Counted from the first letter of the stretch, positions 659-6,137 are shown. The stretch is DNA of 32,000 nt from an uncultured Actinomycetes bacterium (GCA_963843975.1 CAWJMG010000003.1:1740001-1772000); one strand, 5' to 3'. Numbers and translations are program-made. Notes: a model not told the origin generated them from the sequence alone.

Positions 659-904
659 CTACTGGACGTGCAGCGCCTTGCGAGGGCAGGCGCGGGCGGC
701 CGCATCGGCCTGGCGCTGAAGGGACTTCGAGCTCAACGGGTCGCCCGACACGATGGGGTAGCCCCAGCTGTCGACTGCGACGAGGTCGGGCGCGAGGTGC
801 GAGCAGATGCCGACGCCGTCGCACACCGACGGGTCCAGCCGCAGGTGCGGGTGCGCCGGGTCGGCCTGGGGCCGCGCGGCACGCATCGGGGAGACGCGGC
901 TCAT
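659..904 (-). CDS. Small single-cluster ferredoxin, last gene of the ApbE operon
   Basis: This is the last 81 codons of the 659..2329 ORF. ATG at 904 overlaps the TGA of the upstream gene (ATGA, 901-904). The motif CDGVGICSHLAP...ACP is typical of small actinobacterial ferredoxins. Confidence 0.75.
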   Translation of the reverse strand: MSRVSPMRAARPQADPAHPHLRLDPSVCDGVGICSHLAPDLVAVDSWGYPIVSGDPLSSKSLQRQADAAARACPRKALHVQ

Positions 905-2211
905 GACTCCTCCTCCGGCAGCGGCATGACCGAGTGGTTGGGTGCGTCGCACGTGCGTCCCTTGCGGTGCCGGTGGACGTCGTCGGAGAAGACGTGCAGG
1001 CCGGACACCAGCATGCGCAGCGCGCCGTCGGGGTGGCGGCACGCTCCGCGCCCGGAGATCTCGCCGACGTACTTGTCGAGCGTGGCGCGACCGGAGCGGG
1101 AGAGCTTGCCGGCGGTGAGGTCGTCGACGAGCGAGGACGCCGCGGTGAGCCCGAACAGGCACGGGCCGCACTGGCGGGCGGACTGACCGGCGAGGTAGCG
1201 CAGCAGCCTGGCCGACTCCTCGATGCCGCACGCGTTCGCGGGCAGCGGCCCGACGAGGCCGGCGCCGACGGACAGCCCATGGTCGCGGAGCGCGGCGTTG
1301 TCGACGGGCAGGTGGGCGATGCGGTCCCAGGGCACCCACGAGCCGCCGTACCCGCCGAGCAGGACCGCCTGCGGGAGGCGGCCGTCGGGCGATCGCCAGG
1401 TGTGGGCGACCACGTCGCCGAAGGTCTCGTCCGGGCCGACCTCGACGACGGCGCGGTAGGTGTCGTTGATGACGGTGAGGAGGCTGGTCGGCGCGTAGCC
1501 GGCGACGCCGACGTGGGAGAGCAGCCCCGCGCGCGCCAGCGTCTCCGCGTTGTTGACGAGCACCGGCCGCTCGCCCTCGGACCACGGCCGGGCCGGGTCG
1601 GCGACCCAGCGCGGCAGCGTCGGGCCGCCCTCGAGGGTGCGGATGATGCCGGTGGCCTCGCCCGAGAGATAGCGGTCGGGCGCTGCGATCACGCGGATGG
1701 GCGGGTCGATCTCGCCCGCGGCCGCGCGCTCGGCGAGGGCGCGCGTGATCGAGCGGGCGGTCGCGAAGGCGCCGTCGTGGATCCAGACGACACCCTCGTT
1801 GGCCGCGAGCACCTCGATCGCGGCGACGAGGCCGTCGAGCACGAGGTGCGGTCGCGTCTGCAGGAGCACGGCGTCCTTGGCGCATCCGGGCTCGCCCTCG
1901 GCGGCGTTCGCGACGACCGTCGCACCGGGCCCGTGGGCCAGCACCGAGCGCCACTTGGCTGCGGCCGGGAAGTGACCGCCGCCTCGCCCGGTGAGGTGCA
2001 CGGCCTCGATCGCGGCGAGCAGGTCCTCGCCGAGCTGGCCGAGGTGCGAGAGGCGCGGCCCGAACGCTTCGCGGTGGGCCGCGAGGTCCTGGCGCGTCGC
2101 GCCGGTGAGCGACTCGGTGCCGTGCAGCGGCAGCACGGCCGCGTCGTCGAAGATCCGCGTGCCGCGGCGGGTGGCCGCCGCATCGTCCGCGAGGTGCAGG
2201 TGGTGGCTCAT
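901..2211 (-). CDS. NuoF-like protein (NADH-ubiquinone oxidoreductase-F iron-sulfur binding region family)
   Basis: 436-aa ORF. GRGGGHFPAAAKW resembles the NuoF nucleotide/FMN site. SARQCGPCLFG and GRGACRHPDG resemble the NuoF 4Fe-4S region. Four-nt ATGA overlaps occur at both ends (2208-2211 and 901-904). Confidence 0.8.
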   Translation of the reverse strand: MSHHLHLADDAAATRRGTRIFDDAAVLPLHGTESLTGATRQDLAAHREAFGPRLSHLGQLGEDLLAAIEAVHLTGRGGGHFPAAAKWRSVLAHGPGATVVANAAEGEPGCAKDAVLLQTRPHLVLDGLVAAIEVLAANEGVVWIHDGAFATARSITRALAERAAAGEIDPPIRVIAAPDRYLSGEATGIIRTLEGGPTLPRWVADPARPWSEGERPVLVNNAETLARAGLLSHVGVAGYAPTSLLTVINDTYRAVVEVGPDETFGDVVAHTWRSPDGRLPQAVLLGGYGGSWVPWDRIAHLPVDNAALRDHGLSVGAGLVGPLPANACGIEESARLLRYLAGQSARQCGPCLFGLTAASSLVDDLTAGKLSRSGRATLDKYVGEISGRGACRHPDGALRMLVSGLHVFSDDVHRHRKGRTCDAPNHSVMPLPEEES

Positions 2212-3002
2212 CCGAGCCTCCGGCCGCGGGTGTCGCCCTCTGGCTGGACCACGTGGGCCGACGACGGCGCGGCGGCACGGCCGGTGAGCTCGGAGGCGCG
2301 GACCGAGGCGAGCGCCTCGACCTCGTCACGCGGCCGGTCGCTGGTGTAGCGGCTCACGGCGACGGCGACCACGAGGCCGCCGGTGCCGACGTACAGCGCG
2401 AGCAGCGTCGGGGTGTCGATGCCGGCGAGGACGCCGTGCAGCCACACGAGCACGAGGGACACGATGGCCACCTTGTGCACCGGCCACCACACGCGTCGGG
2501 CGAGCCGACCGGCGAGCGCTGCGGTGAGACCCGCCGCGAATCCGGCGTACAGGCCGATCACGCCAAGGGTCACGGGCATCGGGCGGTACGTCGAGCCCAT
2601 CGGCACGAACGCGCCCCACCAGCCGACACCGGCGTACTTGTCGGTCGCGAGCACCACGATGTGGAGCACGGTGAACACGAGCGTGAAGACCGACAGGCTG
2701 ACGTGCGCCCGGATGCGCGTGGCAGCACTGGGCCAGCTGATGCGCGCCCTGGCCGGGTGCGAGAGCACGAGGCCGAACAGCACGAGCCCGACGAGCAGGA
2801 GGTACGACGTGATGCCGGCGGAGCGCCCGAGGATCCAGGGCGCCATCTTGTCGCCGGCGACGCGCTGGACGCCGACGCCGACGAGCCAGCTGGTCGCGAC
2901 CGCGCTGACGGTGACGCCGAGGACGAGACCGGTGCGCATCACGACGGAACGTGCGTCGATGCGGGACTGCCGGTCGACGCTGTCGACTCGCTCACGAGAC
3001 AC
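2208..3002 (-). CDS. Ferric-reductase-like (MsrQ/YedZ-type) transmembrane heme-b protein
   Basis: 264-aa ORF with about six hydrophobic helices. His residues inside helices (LSH, RAH, VLH, PVH, WLH) fit a bis-heme ferric-reductase transmembrane domain. GTG at 3002 overlaps the ApbE stop by 11 nt; ATG at 2939 is an alternative start. Confidence 0.75.
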   Translation of the reverse strand: MSRERVDSVDRQSRIDARSVVMRTGLVLGVTVSAVATSWLVGVGVQRVAGDKMAPWILGRSAGITSYLLLVGLVLFGLVLSHPARARISWPSAATRIRAHVSLSVFTLVFTVLHIVVLATDKYAGVGWWGAFVPMGSTYRPMPVTLGVIGLYAGFAAGLTAALAGRLARRVWWPVHKVAIVSLVLVWLHGVLAGIDTPTLLALYVGTGGLVVAVAVSRYTSDRPRDEVEALASVRASELTGRAAAPSSAHVVQPEGDTRGRRLG

Positions 3003-3969
3003 GGGACACCTGCCAGGCTACGTAGGGACGCATCTCCCGGCTGACGCCGACGTGACCGCCGGTGTCGATCCAGAGGGCTGCGAGGCCGTGCTCGTCGGCG
3101 AAGGACCGGATGGACCCGCGACCGAGCACGAAGAGGGACTTGCTCCAGACCTCGGCGATGCCGGGATCGGCGCCGACCACGGTCACCGACGCGAGGTCGG
3201 ACTCGGCGGGCATGCGCGTGCGAGGGTCGATGAGGTGGTGCACCTGGCGTTCGCCGACGGTCCACGAGCGGATCCGGGTGGACGAGGTGGCGATGCCGCG
3301 GTCGGTCACGCGCAGCACCGCTGCGGACTCGCCGCCGAAGGGGTTCTCGACGTCGACCATCCAGCCGGTGCCCTCGGGGCCACCGCCGAGCGCCATGAGG
3401 TCTCCCCCGGCCTCGGCAAGCACGGCGTCGCCGCTGCCCGCGAGGATCTCCGATGCCCAGGTGACCGCGAGGCCCTTGCCGATGCCGCCCAGGTCGACGG
3501 GTTCGGGGCCGATGCGCACCGACGAGCGCTCCTCGTCGAACTCGGGCTTCCAGCGGCGTACCGGCTGCCAGCGCCGACGCGCCTTCGGGAGCTCGTGGTC
3601 GGGCATCGCGAGGGTGCGCTCGGCGAAGGGCAGCGAGCGGTCATAGCCGATCGACTTCAGGACCGTGAGGACCCGCGGGTCGAAGAGGCCGTCGGTGAGC
3701 CGGTGGGCCTCGGCGGCGAGCACGAGGGCCTCGAAGCACTCGGGCGCCACCTGCTGCCACTGCGTGCCGGCGGCGTTCGCCCGCATGAGATCGCTCGCGG
3801 GGTCGAAACGCGTGCAGGTGGAGGCCACCGCCTCGACCGTCTCCTGCGCCTTCGCGACCGCGGCCTCGGCGCCCGCTCCCGGGCGCACGACCCAGAAGCG
3901 GACGTCTGAGGCCATCGAACGGAAGGTGTGCTGCAGGTCAGAGCGGTCGGGGCGGAGGTCCACGGGCAT
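2992..3969 (-). CDS. apbE: FAD:protein FMN transferase (ApbE family)
   Basis: 325-aa ORF. The N-terminus FRSMASDVRFWV aligns with the usual ApbE F-x-AMGT start. The motifs DLGGIGKG, RGIATSS and HHLIDPRTG-like HHLIDPRTRMP are ApbE hallmarks. No hydrophobic signal peptide or lipobox precedes them. Confidence 0.9.
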   Translation of the reverse strand: MPVDLRPDRSDLQHTFRSMASDVRFWVVRPGAGAEAAVAKAQETVEAVASTCTRFDPASDLMRANAAGTQWQQVAPECFEALVLAAEAHRLTDGLFDPRVLTVLKSIGYDRSLPFAERTLAMPDHELPKARRRWQPVRRWKPEFDEERSSVRIGPEPVDLGGIGKGLAVTWASEILAGSGDAVLAEAGGDLMALGGGPEGTGWMVDVENPFGGESAAVLRVTDRGIATSSTRIRSWTVGERQVHHLIDPRTRMPAESDLASVTVVGADPGIAEVWSKSLFVLGRGSIRSFADEHGLAALWIDTGGHVGVSREMRPYVAWQVSRVS

Positions 3970-4427
3970 CAGCCTGAGGCGCCGGTGGTCGTGTTGGTCG
4001 GCGGCGGCGGCGTCGCCGGCTTCGGGGCCGGCTTGGTGGCGGGCTTGCTGACCGTGGTCGTCTTCTTGGTCGAGGTGGTGCCCGACGAGGAGGACTTCCG
4101 GGTGGTGCCCGAGCTCGAGTACGAGCGCGAGGAGGTGCCGCTGCTGCCCGAGCCGGTGACGACGGAGGTCGCCTTCTTCCTGAGCGCGTCCACCTTCTTG
4201 GTGAGGGCCGCGATCTTCTTCTTCTCCTTCGCGACGTCCTTGCGGAGCTGCGCGACGGCGGGGTCGACCGTGGGCGTGGCCGCGGCCGGCGTGGTCGCGG
4301 CGGGTGCGGCCGCGGTCACCGGCTGGTTCTCTGCCGCCCAGACGGTGGTGCCGGTGAAGACGGCGGCTGCGAGCGGGGCCACGAGGGCCGCCGCGGTCCA
4401 GCGCGCACGGGTGCCGCGGTCAGTCAT
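3969..4427 (-). CDS. Secreted or membrane-anchored coiled-coil, Lys- and Ser/Thr/Pro-rich protein (paralog B)
   Basis: ATG at 4427 is preceded by GAGGGTGG. The N-terminus RARWTAAALVAPLAAAVFTGTTVWA is signal-like. The heptad-like stretch VAQLRKDVAKEKKKIAALTKKVDALRKK is followed by S/T/K low complexity, and the protein ends PPPPTNTTTGASG. Its stop shares one nt with the apbE ATG (TGATG at 3967-3971). Confidence 0.65.
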   Translation of the reverse strand: MTDRGTRARWTAAALVAPLAAAVFTGTTVWAAENQPVTAAAPAATTPAAATPTVDPAVAQLRKDVAKEKKKIAALTKKVDALRKKATSVVTGSGSSGTSSRSYSSSGTTRKSSSSGTTSTKKTTTVSKPATKPAPKPATPPPPTNTTTGASG

Positions 4428-4890
4428 CGTCGCCACCCTCGTGCTCGTCGTCGTCCTCGCCACCGGTGCTGCCGCTCGCCTGCGTCGTGGTGTGCGGCGT
4501 CGGCTTGGGCGCCGGGGCGGTGCTGTGCGCCTGCGAGCGGGTGGTGGTCCTGGTCTCGTGCGTGCGGACCGCGGTCTGGGCGCGGGCAGCGGCGCGGGCC
4601 GCGGCCTTGGCCGCCGCGAGCTTCACGGCCTTGGCGTGCTCGAGCGCCTTCGCGGCCGCCGACACGTCGGTGCCGAGCGCCTCGCTCGTGGCGCGGAGGG
4701 TGGCGAGCTCGTCCTCGAGCAGCGAGATGCTGCCGTCGGCGACCGCCGGGGCGGACTCGGGGGTGGTGGCGGCTGCGGGCGACGCCGTCGTGAGCGCTGC
4801 GGTGAGCCCCGATGCGACGGCCACTCCGCCGGTCGCCAGAACCCCCGTCGCTGCCACGGCTGTGGCGATCATTCTCTGCGTAGGTCGCAT
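4420..4890 (-). CDS. Secreted coiled-coil, Ala/Thr-rich protein with an acidic tail (paralog A); first gene of the operon
   Basis: ATG at 4890 is preceded by GAGGAGGA five nt upstream. The N-terminus MRPTQRMIATAVAATGVLATGGVAVASG is signal-like. The Ala-rich helix LLEDELATLRATSEAL...AAKAAARAAARAQ follows, and the tail is APAPKPTPHTTTQASGSTGGEDDDEHEGGDDD. The longer TTG/ATG-extended ORF (to 4998) runs through the upstream repeat region and is unlikely. Confidence 0.65.
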   Translation of the reverse strand: MRPTQRMIATAVAATGVLATGGVAVASGLTAALTTASPAAATTPESAPAVADGSISLLEDELATLRATSEALGTDVSAAAKALEHAKAVKLAAAKAAARAAARAQTAVRTHETRTTTRSQAHSTAPAPKPTPHTTTQASGSTGGEDDDEHEGGDDD

Positions 4891-4993: not shown

Positions 4994-5131
4994 GTCACCG
5001 AGGGTGAGCAGATAACGGTCGCCCCGTGACGCTGAACGGGTGATGCGGCGTGCTCAGCGCGAGCGGGTAAGGCTCCCCTCAGTGACGATCGCAGCCGTCG
5101 CCGAGCCCGGCCCGCCCTGCCGCCGGCGCCT

Positions 5132-6046
5132 CTAGAGGGTTGCCGCCGCGAACGTGTCGCAGCGCCGGGCGTCGCCCGTGGAGTAGCCGGTCGAGAGCCA
5201 GCGCTGACGCTGCGCGGAGGTGCCGTGGGTGAACTGCTCGGGGATGACGCGGCCCGCCGTCCGCTGCTGGATGCGGTCGTCTCCGATGACGCTGGCGGCG
5301 TCGAGCCCGTCGGCGATGTCGGCCTGGGTCAGGCTGTCGACGAAGCCGGTGCGGACGGCGTTGCGCGCCCAGACCCCGGCGAAGCAGTCGGCCTGCAGCT
5401 CGAGCCGCACCGCGCCGCTCTCCGGCCCCTGGCGGTCGCGGCCGACGAGCGTGTCGTAGCCCGTGATGTGCTGGACGTGGTGGCCGTACTCGTGGGCGAT
5501 CACGTACGTCTCGGCGAACACGCCGCCCTGGGCACCGAAGTCGCGACGCAGCTGGTCGAAGAACCCGAGGTCGAGGTACACCGTCTCGTCCGCCGGGCAG
5601 TAGAAGGGGCCGACGTCTGAGGTCGCGGGGCCGCAGCCGGTGTCGACGCTGCCGGTGAAGAACACCGTGACGGCCTTGCGGTAGGGCGTCTTCCCGCCGA
5701 GCGCCGTGCCCCAGTACGCCTGCACGCTGTTGACCGCGGCGACGATGCGGCACTCGGGGATCGTGTCGGCGTCGGCGCCGGTCCGACAGGTGGCCGCGAG
5801 GTCCTGGCCGGTCTGGGTGCCCTGCACCTGCTGCTGCGTGCCGTCGCCGCCGAAGCCTCCGCTCAGCAGGAAGATCACCACGCCCATCGCGATGAGCCCG
5901 GTGATGCCGCCGCCGAAGATCTTGTACGCCGCCCCGCCGGCCATCACGGCGCCCGCGCTCCCACCCCCGCCGCCCCCGGACGAGGAACGTCCACGGCGGT
6001 CCTGGATCTGCGAGGTGTCGAGCTGCGCGTCGTCGTCGAAGTCCAC
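5132..6046 (-). CDS. YpfJ-family neutral zinc metallopeptidase, membrane-anchored
   Basis: HEYGHH zinc motif, N-terminus DFDDDAQLDTSQIQDRRG, a Gly-rich linker and one TM segment, as in YpfJ-like proteins. GTG at 6046 has GGGAGG upstream; the track's longer start at 6100 is possible. Confidence 0.8.
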   Translation of the reverse strand: MDFDDDAQLDTSQIQDRRGRSSSGGGGGGSAGAVMAGGAAYKIFGGGITGLIAMGVVIFLLSGGFGGDGTQQQVQGTQTGQDLAATCRTGADADTIPECRIVAAVNSVQAYWGTALGGKTPYRKAVTVFFTGSVDTGCGPATSDVGPFYCPADETVYLDLGFFDQLRRDFGAQGGVFAETYVIAHEYGHHVQHITGYDTLVGRDRQGPESGAVRLELQADCFAGVWARNAVRTGFVDSLTQADIADGLDAASVIGDDRIQQRTAGRVIPEQFTHGTSAQRQRWLSTGYSTGDARRCDTFAAATL

Positions 6047-6137
6047 CTGAGGCCTCCCTGCTCCCGGGCCCACCGTAGGGCGGGAGCCCCTGCGGCGCAC
6101 CGGGTCGTGGGACCGATGTACCGGCGCCGCGCAAGAC

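Follow-up and report, generated by a model that had tools for sequence, protein, structure and literature searches.

The stretch of DNA analysed here, referred to below as the window, comprises 32,000 nucleotides from an uncultured Actinomycetes bacterium (GCA_963843975.1, CAWJMG010000003.1:1740001-1772000). A six-gene operon lies on its minus strand. Its genes, and the short motifs that matter for this work, are as follows in the order of reading.

4420..4890, minus strand: tail protein A, 156 aa, a paralog of tail protein B that shares its architecture and has an additional acidic extension at the C-terminus
4474..4494, minus strand: HTTTQAS in tail protein A, at the tag position equivalent to HTYTGAS and HGSTGAS of relatives
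3969..4427, minus strand: tail protein B, 152 aa, with a hydrophobic leader or anchor, a coiled-coil, a Ser/Thr/Pro-rich spacer and a C-terminal tag
3972..3995, minus strand: the tag NTTTGASG of tail protein B, read from the translation, with Ser151 as candidate FMN acceptor
2992..3969, minus strand: ApbE-family protein without a signal peptide (PF02424, 168 bits)
2208..3002, minus strand: six-helix membrane protein resembling MsrQ and ferric reductases, containing the His pairs H99/H113 and H185/H199
901..2211, minus strand: NuoF-like NAD(P)H/FMN/[4Fe-4S] protein, 436 aa (PF01512 and PF10589)
2095..2115, minus strand: ESLTGAT, at residues 33-39 of the NuoF-like protein; this near-match to the acceptor motif of ApbE is specific to the lineage and judged non-functional
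659..904, minus strand: small single-cluster ferredoxin, 81 aa (PF13459, Fer4_15, E 4e-8)

The stop codon of tail B overlaps the start of apbE (TGATG, with one base shared with the ATG of apbE), and the start of the ferredoxin gene overlaps the stop of the NuoF-like gene. The gene order apbE, membrane protein, NuoF-like protein, ferredoxin recurs in Actinomycetota, Chloroflexota and Dormibacterota. In the set of 80 syntenic loci that we have collected by scanning species-representative genomes, the ferredoxin gene follows the NuoF-like gene in 78. The six genes probably encode a transmembrane electron conduit. A scan of the operon for promoters and terminators was uninformative. Immediately ahead of the operon, this strand of the window also encodes a putative neutral zinc metallopeptidase (5132-6100; PF04228, 236 bits).

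The membrane protein in the window has no Pfam match, PF01794 included. It shows 31% identity (E 7e-9) to a paralog in the same genome, and this paralog, together with distant orthologs, matches PF01794 with 35-36 bits, the cut-off being 28. Within each of its His pairs the spacing, as read from the translation, is 14 residues. The paralog belongs to a second copy of the whole module:

L091 2998-6467 (contig C1:277024-280466), minus strand: paralogous module in the same genome, with a tail protein, ApbE, a PF01794 protein, a NuoF-like protein and a ferredoxin

The tail protein of this second copy ends in ATSGGS and lies immediately upstream of its own ApbE. We have also observed that the second-copy ApbE does not lie in one frame but in two (5228-6043 and 5098-5685), suggesting either a frameshift or an error in the assembly. 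Similarly, the ApbE and NuoF-like genes of two metagenome-assembled relatives (L039, 5261-8235; L025, 5298-6232) are spread over several frames, and these broken frames are likely frameshifts or assembly errors as well.

Pfam and NCBIfam searches with tails A and B have returned nothing above the cut-offs, just faint noise of a coiled-coil-like kind. What the tail proteins share is a positively charged N-terminus, a hydrophobic stretch and a low-complexity spacer rich in Ser, Thr, Pro and Ala, and beyond the hydrophobic stretch they continue for 71-221 residues (median 112) up to the C-terminus. A coiled-coil-like stretch is found in tail B and in some relatives. In addition, the tails of clade I (L016-L036) have in common a W-x-x-x-H-D-P just past the hydrophobic stretch, e.g., WAGSHDP or WAQAHDP, which suggests that the N-terminal helix region may be functional in itself, beyond the role of a cleaved leader. 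At the corresponding position (~4320-4345) tail B of the window reads WAAENQP.

At the C-terminal end of tail B, NTTTGAS fits the acceptor motif of the NqrC/RnfG type in the form that allows Asp or Asn at the first position, while the review PMC12052999 gives Asp alone. In tail A, whose orthologs read HTYTGAS (L011) and HGSTGAS (L014), the Gly of the motif has been replaced by Gln in this genome, and for this reason tail A may be a poorer substrate, or none. The tag-bearing peptides of interest as candidate acceptors are PPTNTTTGASG and HGTESLTGATRQD.

For the syntenic loci, we took the ORF with a stop codon that touches or overlaps the start of apbE, and searched its last nine residues with a loose pattern, [ST][GKR][AGSQ][ST], and a strict one, [ST]G[AGS][ST]. 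Of 59 loci, 52 have the loose tag, compared with 47 out of 1960 background ORFs from the same loci (2.4%); these counts are motif-based, and the frame choice by GC3 picked the wrong tail frame in a few loci. With the strict pattern, 44 of the 59 loci are still positive, while the background drops to 0.8% of the 1,960 ORFs. The pairing of tail and apbE has held even in three loci where apbE is relocated downstream of the ferredoxin gene (L055, L079 and L080). Seven further loci, in which a neighbouring apbE is not detectable, have tail-like genes too, six of them before the membrane-protein gene and one after the ferredoxin (L042). When tested with an Asp/Asn criterion, the first tag position is variable (N, D, H, Q, S and others). 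That is, the tags often start with a residue other than Asp or Asn, and the Gly-Ala pair varies to GG, GS, KA or RA.

Such a position and length are in line with what is known about ApbE substrates. A seven-residue terminal tag is enough for ApbE, and replacing its first Asp with Ala has only a minor effect in the system examined (PMC12052999). As far as that review relays it, the engineered Flavin-tag of Tong et al. (2021) is a short terminal peptide which suffices for modification and works best at the terminus, and the tail tags are likewise terminal. FMN_red proteins (Huang et al. 2024, mSystems, PMC11334425) have been proposed to carry a natural motif on an unstructured C-terminal extension, as the tails do. 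Different from both of these systems, however, the protein that bears the tail tag is of low complexity and contains no flavoprotein domain. A literature search for domain-free flavin tails or Tat-linked flavinylation has found only the papers of Meheust and Huang and the ApbE review.

The putative enzyme for this modification matches PF02424 over profile positions 13-266 of 266, at 168 bits against a cut-off of 25.6. Its product starts with MPVDLRPDRSDLQHTFRSMASDV. In the 43 in-frame codons upstream of the start we have found no earlier ATG, GTG or TTG and no hydrophobic stretch, so that the earlier description of an ApbE lacking a hydrophobic leader or lipobox agrees with both the translation and the upstream codons. 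The same pattern extends to the 58 syntenic orthologs, in which the conserved core begins ~10-25 residues past the likely start and no hydrophobic segment lies directly upstream of that core. Cytosolic ApbEs have been documented (PMC12052999). The Klebsiella pneumoniae enzyme also has no signal peptide; the soluble fumarate reductase that it flavinylates, however, is a cytoplasmic protein containing an FMN_bind domain, whereas the conserved candidate substrate here has an export or anchor leader. Overall, the leaderless pattern supports the first-pass annotation in that this ApbE is probably cytoplasmic.

The Asp and Thr of the canonical A-D-A-x-x-T, which we take to be Mg2+ ligands, are replaced throughout the clade of the window, which reads AEVWSK. 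For comparison, the aligned stretch is ADALST in 1vrm and ADAWDT in 4xgw (3pnd was aligned too). A more distant clade, including the second copy in this genome, has A-N-x-A-[ST]-T at this site. Actually, non-canonical Mg sites are found in the tail-linked leaderless ApbEs of L011-L090 generally (ApbE residues about 262-282, window ~3130-3190). Since the Mg-site residues are altered in this way (Asp to Glu and Thr to Lys, or Asp to Asn in the more distant clade), the activity or metal dependence of the window ApbE may differ. Other signatures of the family are present: the window protein has VHHLIDP, corresponding to the His of H-x-[IV]-D-P, and DLGGIGKG, corresponding to the FAD motif G-G-x-x-K-G, and the clade keeps both HH[IL][IV]DP, with the conserved His that is presumably the catalytic base, and GG[IA]xKG.

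Considering the remodelled metal site, we have weighed the reading that this leaderless ApbE-like protein transfers flavin to none of the operon's proteins, but might be an FAD pyrophosphatase, an enzyme of flavin trafficking or a transferase of some other group, with the tag serving, e.g., for docking or processing. ApbE-family FAD pyrophosphatases are known (PMC4767422), and the replaced Asp and Thr (AEVWSK here, ANxAST in the distant clade) would fit such a role, the more so as DALAT is retained in the two paralogs of this genome that adjoin FMN_bind genes. We consider it unlikely nevertheless, because the conserved His and the GG[IA]xKG motif are retained, because the tail end has the form and position of an acceptor motif, and because the tail gene stays with apbE when the latter is relocated.

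A transferase may also act on a substrate encoded elsewhere. The operon itself contains no FMN_bind domain (PF04205) in any of its proteins, but the genome has four such domains in other places, three with SGAT and the fourth with TSAT, on which the window ApbE could act in trans. These domains, however, adjoin two other ApbE paralogs, which have the canonical Mg site with D-A-L-A-T, and the operon-linked ApbE clade travels with tail genes across phyla. Thus we regard an acceptor in trans as very improbable.

The acceptor first proposed is the NuoF-like protein. Its ORF matches PF01512 (Complex1_51K, 100 bits) and PF10589 (NADH_4Fe-4S, 47 bits), the FMN-binding and the Fe-S domain of NuoF, respectively. 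Since its score against the NuoF equivalog TIGR01959 is 116 bits, far under the cut-off of 558.65, the protein is NuoF-like and not NuoF proper. In this family, C328, C348, C351, C391 and C421 are invariant (window 901-2211). The motifs GRGGGHFP..KW and N..EGEP, presumably the non-covalent FMN and NADH sites of NuoF, are invariant too, and because of this its FMN is most likely held non-covalently, as in NuoF. In the cluster motif known from NuoF, the first Cys is replaced here (QSARQCGPC), so another Cys probably completes the [4Fe-4S] cluster.

The AlphaFold2 model of this protein (85 sequences) has a mean pLDDT of 88.4. Residues 21-70 reach 94-97, with a mean of 95 for the block 31-40, and disorder is confined to residues 1-14. 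The best Foldseek matches of the model are HydB, NfnB and NuoF (TM ~0.75), with 429 alignment columns, gaps included, against the mycobacterial NuoF. Thus residues 33-39 lie within an ordered N-terminal domain rather than in a loose stretch, and the "N-terminal extension" described at first is mostly ordered. The NuoF-like protein has the fold and the FMN and NADH motifs of the NADH-FMN-[4Fe-4S] subunits NuoF, HydB and NfnB; different from these, its operon has no NuoE partner gene.

The first-pass annotation had noticed ESLTGAT at codons 33-39 (2115 down to 2095), and minus-strand translation of 2095-2115 gives exactly these residues. Compared with the acceptor motif D-x-x-[ST]-G-A-[ST] of NqrC/RnfG, the segment departs solely by Glu for Asp. 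We have then measured how often such matches occur by chance, using a crude ORF set of 1.54 million residues from the same genome. One [ST]GA[ST] core is found per 3,187 residues, in keeping with the annotation's own estimate of once per few thousand. The seven-residue motif with D, N or E at the first position occurs 33 times, or once per 46,557 residues, which corresponds to a chance of ~1% for a protein of 436 aa and ~2.4% over the four leaderless proteins of the operon. A match of this kind is infrequent, but hardly striking when more than one protein is considered and the first position is relaxed. Besides, the known acceptor motifs sit in FMN_bind, NqrB/RnfD, DUF2271 or DUF3570 folds, and not in NuoF.

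In 120 homologs of the NuoF-like protein (47-96% identity), the consensus of the aligned segment is GT-ESLTG-V-x-x-x-DL, and the individual positions are distributed as follows.

Position 33: Glu in the window; Glu in 84 of 120 homologs
Position 36: Thr in the window; Ser or Thr in 69 of 120
Position 37: Gly in the window; Gly in 103 of 120
Position 38: Ala in the window; Val in 53 and Ala in 11 of 120
Position 39: Thr in the window, the would-be acceptor; Ala in 33, Glu in 22, Thr in 13, Asp in 11 and Ser in 9 of 120

The full motif is found in only two of the 120 homologs, P0001 (96% identity) and P0074. At 86-89% identity it is already gone, with TGVE, TGVS and TGAA in P0002-P0004. The would-be acceptor is Ser or Thr in 22 of 120, so that independent drift at positions 38 and 39 predicts (11/120) x (22/120) x 120 = ~2 full motifs, and two are observed. 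The family thus keeps an E-S-L-[TS]-G turn, which makes up five-sevenths of the motif. Since this turn alone is conserved, the motif in the window has been completed by two unconstrained residues. In contrast to the NqrC/RnfG-type motif, neither the Ala nor the acceptor Thr is conserved among the NuoF-like proteins. In the system tested, changing the acceptor Thr to Ala abolishes flavinylation, and changing Ala to Val halves it (PMC12052999).

The syntenic loci give the same picture. In none of the 80 NuoF-like genes have we found [DN]xx[ST]GA[ST], and at the column of ESLTGAT none of the other 79 aligned genes has [ST]G[AGS][ST], so the window is the sole row with this pattern in the column of residue 36. 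The paralogous NuoF-like protein in the same genome (37% identity) does not have the motif either. We further aligned the four folded proteins with those of the window (80 rows for the NuoF-like protein, 80 for the ferredoxin, 73 for the membrane protein and 60 for ApbE), and in every column [ST]G[AGS][ST] is limited to two rows at most. Therefore, the four folded operon proteins have no conserved acceptor motif, and the tails are the only conserved candidates. The check proposed with the original observation, namely that TGAT should be kept in orthologs from clusters with apbE, has failed in both sets.

The reading in which Thr39 receives covalent FMN from a cytoplasmic ApbE, if only in this lineage, is very improbable: ESLTGAT is present and kept in P0001, neither ApbE nor the NuoF-like protein has a leader, the first motif residue can be replaced with minor effect (PMC12052999), and motifs close to the flavin site, whether engineered or natural, can turn non-covalent flavoproteins into covalent ones (PMC10722498; the FMN_red proteins), but all of this is outweighed by the early loss of the motif among close homologs, its absence from the 79 other loci and the paralogous operon, the well-ordered segment, the intact non-covalent FMN site and the far better conserved candidate in the tails. 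Of the original proposal, then, the shared compartment of the two leaderless proteins stands as judged from sequence, and the role of the NuoF-like protein as covalent FMN acceptor is not supported. Within the NuoF family, covalent flavinylation would have been a first. As the motif is formally acceptable and a leaderless ApbE is in the same compartment, ESLTGAT may be modified incidentally in this organism.

Overall, we consider it likely that ESLTGAT is a chance match specific to this lineage, that ApbE instead modifies the tags of the tail proteins, that the FMN of the NuoF-like protein is bound non-covalently, and that the operon as a whole serves as an electron conduit. The Ala-Thr completion of the E-S-L-[TS]-G turn would have arisen by drift in this lineage only. 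Electrons would pass from NAD(P)H to the NuoF-like protein with its FMN and Fe-S cluster, then to the ferredoxin, and from there to the MsrQ-like membrane protein with two haems. The leaderless ApbE would put FMN on the Ser or Thr that ends the C-terminal tag of the two small tail proteins, and these tags would be "flavin tags" of natural origin, held by flexible tails near the outer haem.

A class of related loci has been described before. MsrQ-like flavinylation clusters have been catalogued mainly in Actinobacteria, 31 of them with a NuoF-like gene (Meheust et al. 2021, eLife 10:e66878, PMC8238504). The operon in the window resembles this subset in combining apbE, a six-helix two-haem protein of the ferric-reductase type and a NuoF-like protein with PF10589, and in both the proposed flow would start at NAD(P)H and cross the membrane to reach a flavinylated protein. 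It differs in four respects. The domain that marks the catalogued acceptors, FMN_bind, has all its hits elsewhere in this genome; the proposed acceptor is a C-terminal tag on a protein without domains; the membrane protein stays under the PF01794 threshold, although it has the bis-His spacing and is homologous to the paralog and orthologs that match; and ApbE has no signal peptide, a class which the survey discarded, as its screen retained only ApbE and FMN_bind genes bearing signal peptides (PMC8238504). The operon is a variant of the catalogued MsrQ-like/NuoF-like class with a candidate acceptor for which no earlier description was found.

If the tails are the substrates, the compartments need to be reconciled. 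Their N-terminal leader or anchor predicts a C-terminus on the outside, while ApbE has no leader and looks cytoplasmic. Flavinylation of the tails would therefore have to take place ahead of export, and we put this forward as a hypothesis. As for the export route, a twin arginine before the hydrophobic stretch is found in 32 of 50 tails, compared with 135 of 488 crude background ORFs, which is a moderate enrichment only, and TatC is encoded in the genome. Arginine-rich leaders are common in high-GC genomes, and tail B of the window has no twin arginine but reads TRARW at this place; for these reasons Tat export of the tails is suggested as a hypothesis only.

Based on the above analyses, we tentatively propose, with a little less than even confidence, a more general scheme, in which the clade of leaderless ApbEs with a remodelled metal site flavinylates domain-free tails in the cytoplasm, and these are then exported by Tat or Sec or become anchored. 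The exported tails would present flavins on a flexible leash beside the MsrQ-like conduit, which the NuoF-like dehydrogenase would feed. Listeria uses FAD export (PMC9973259); flavinylation of the tails before export, if true, would remove the need for it. Resolving the compartment puzzle of ApbE and the tails would show whether flavinylation can precede export.
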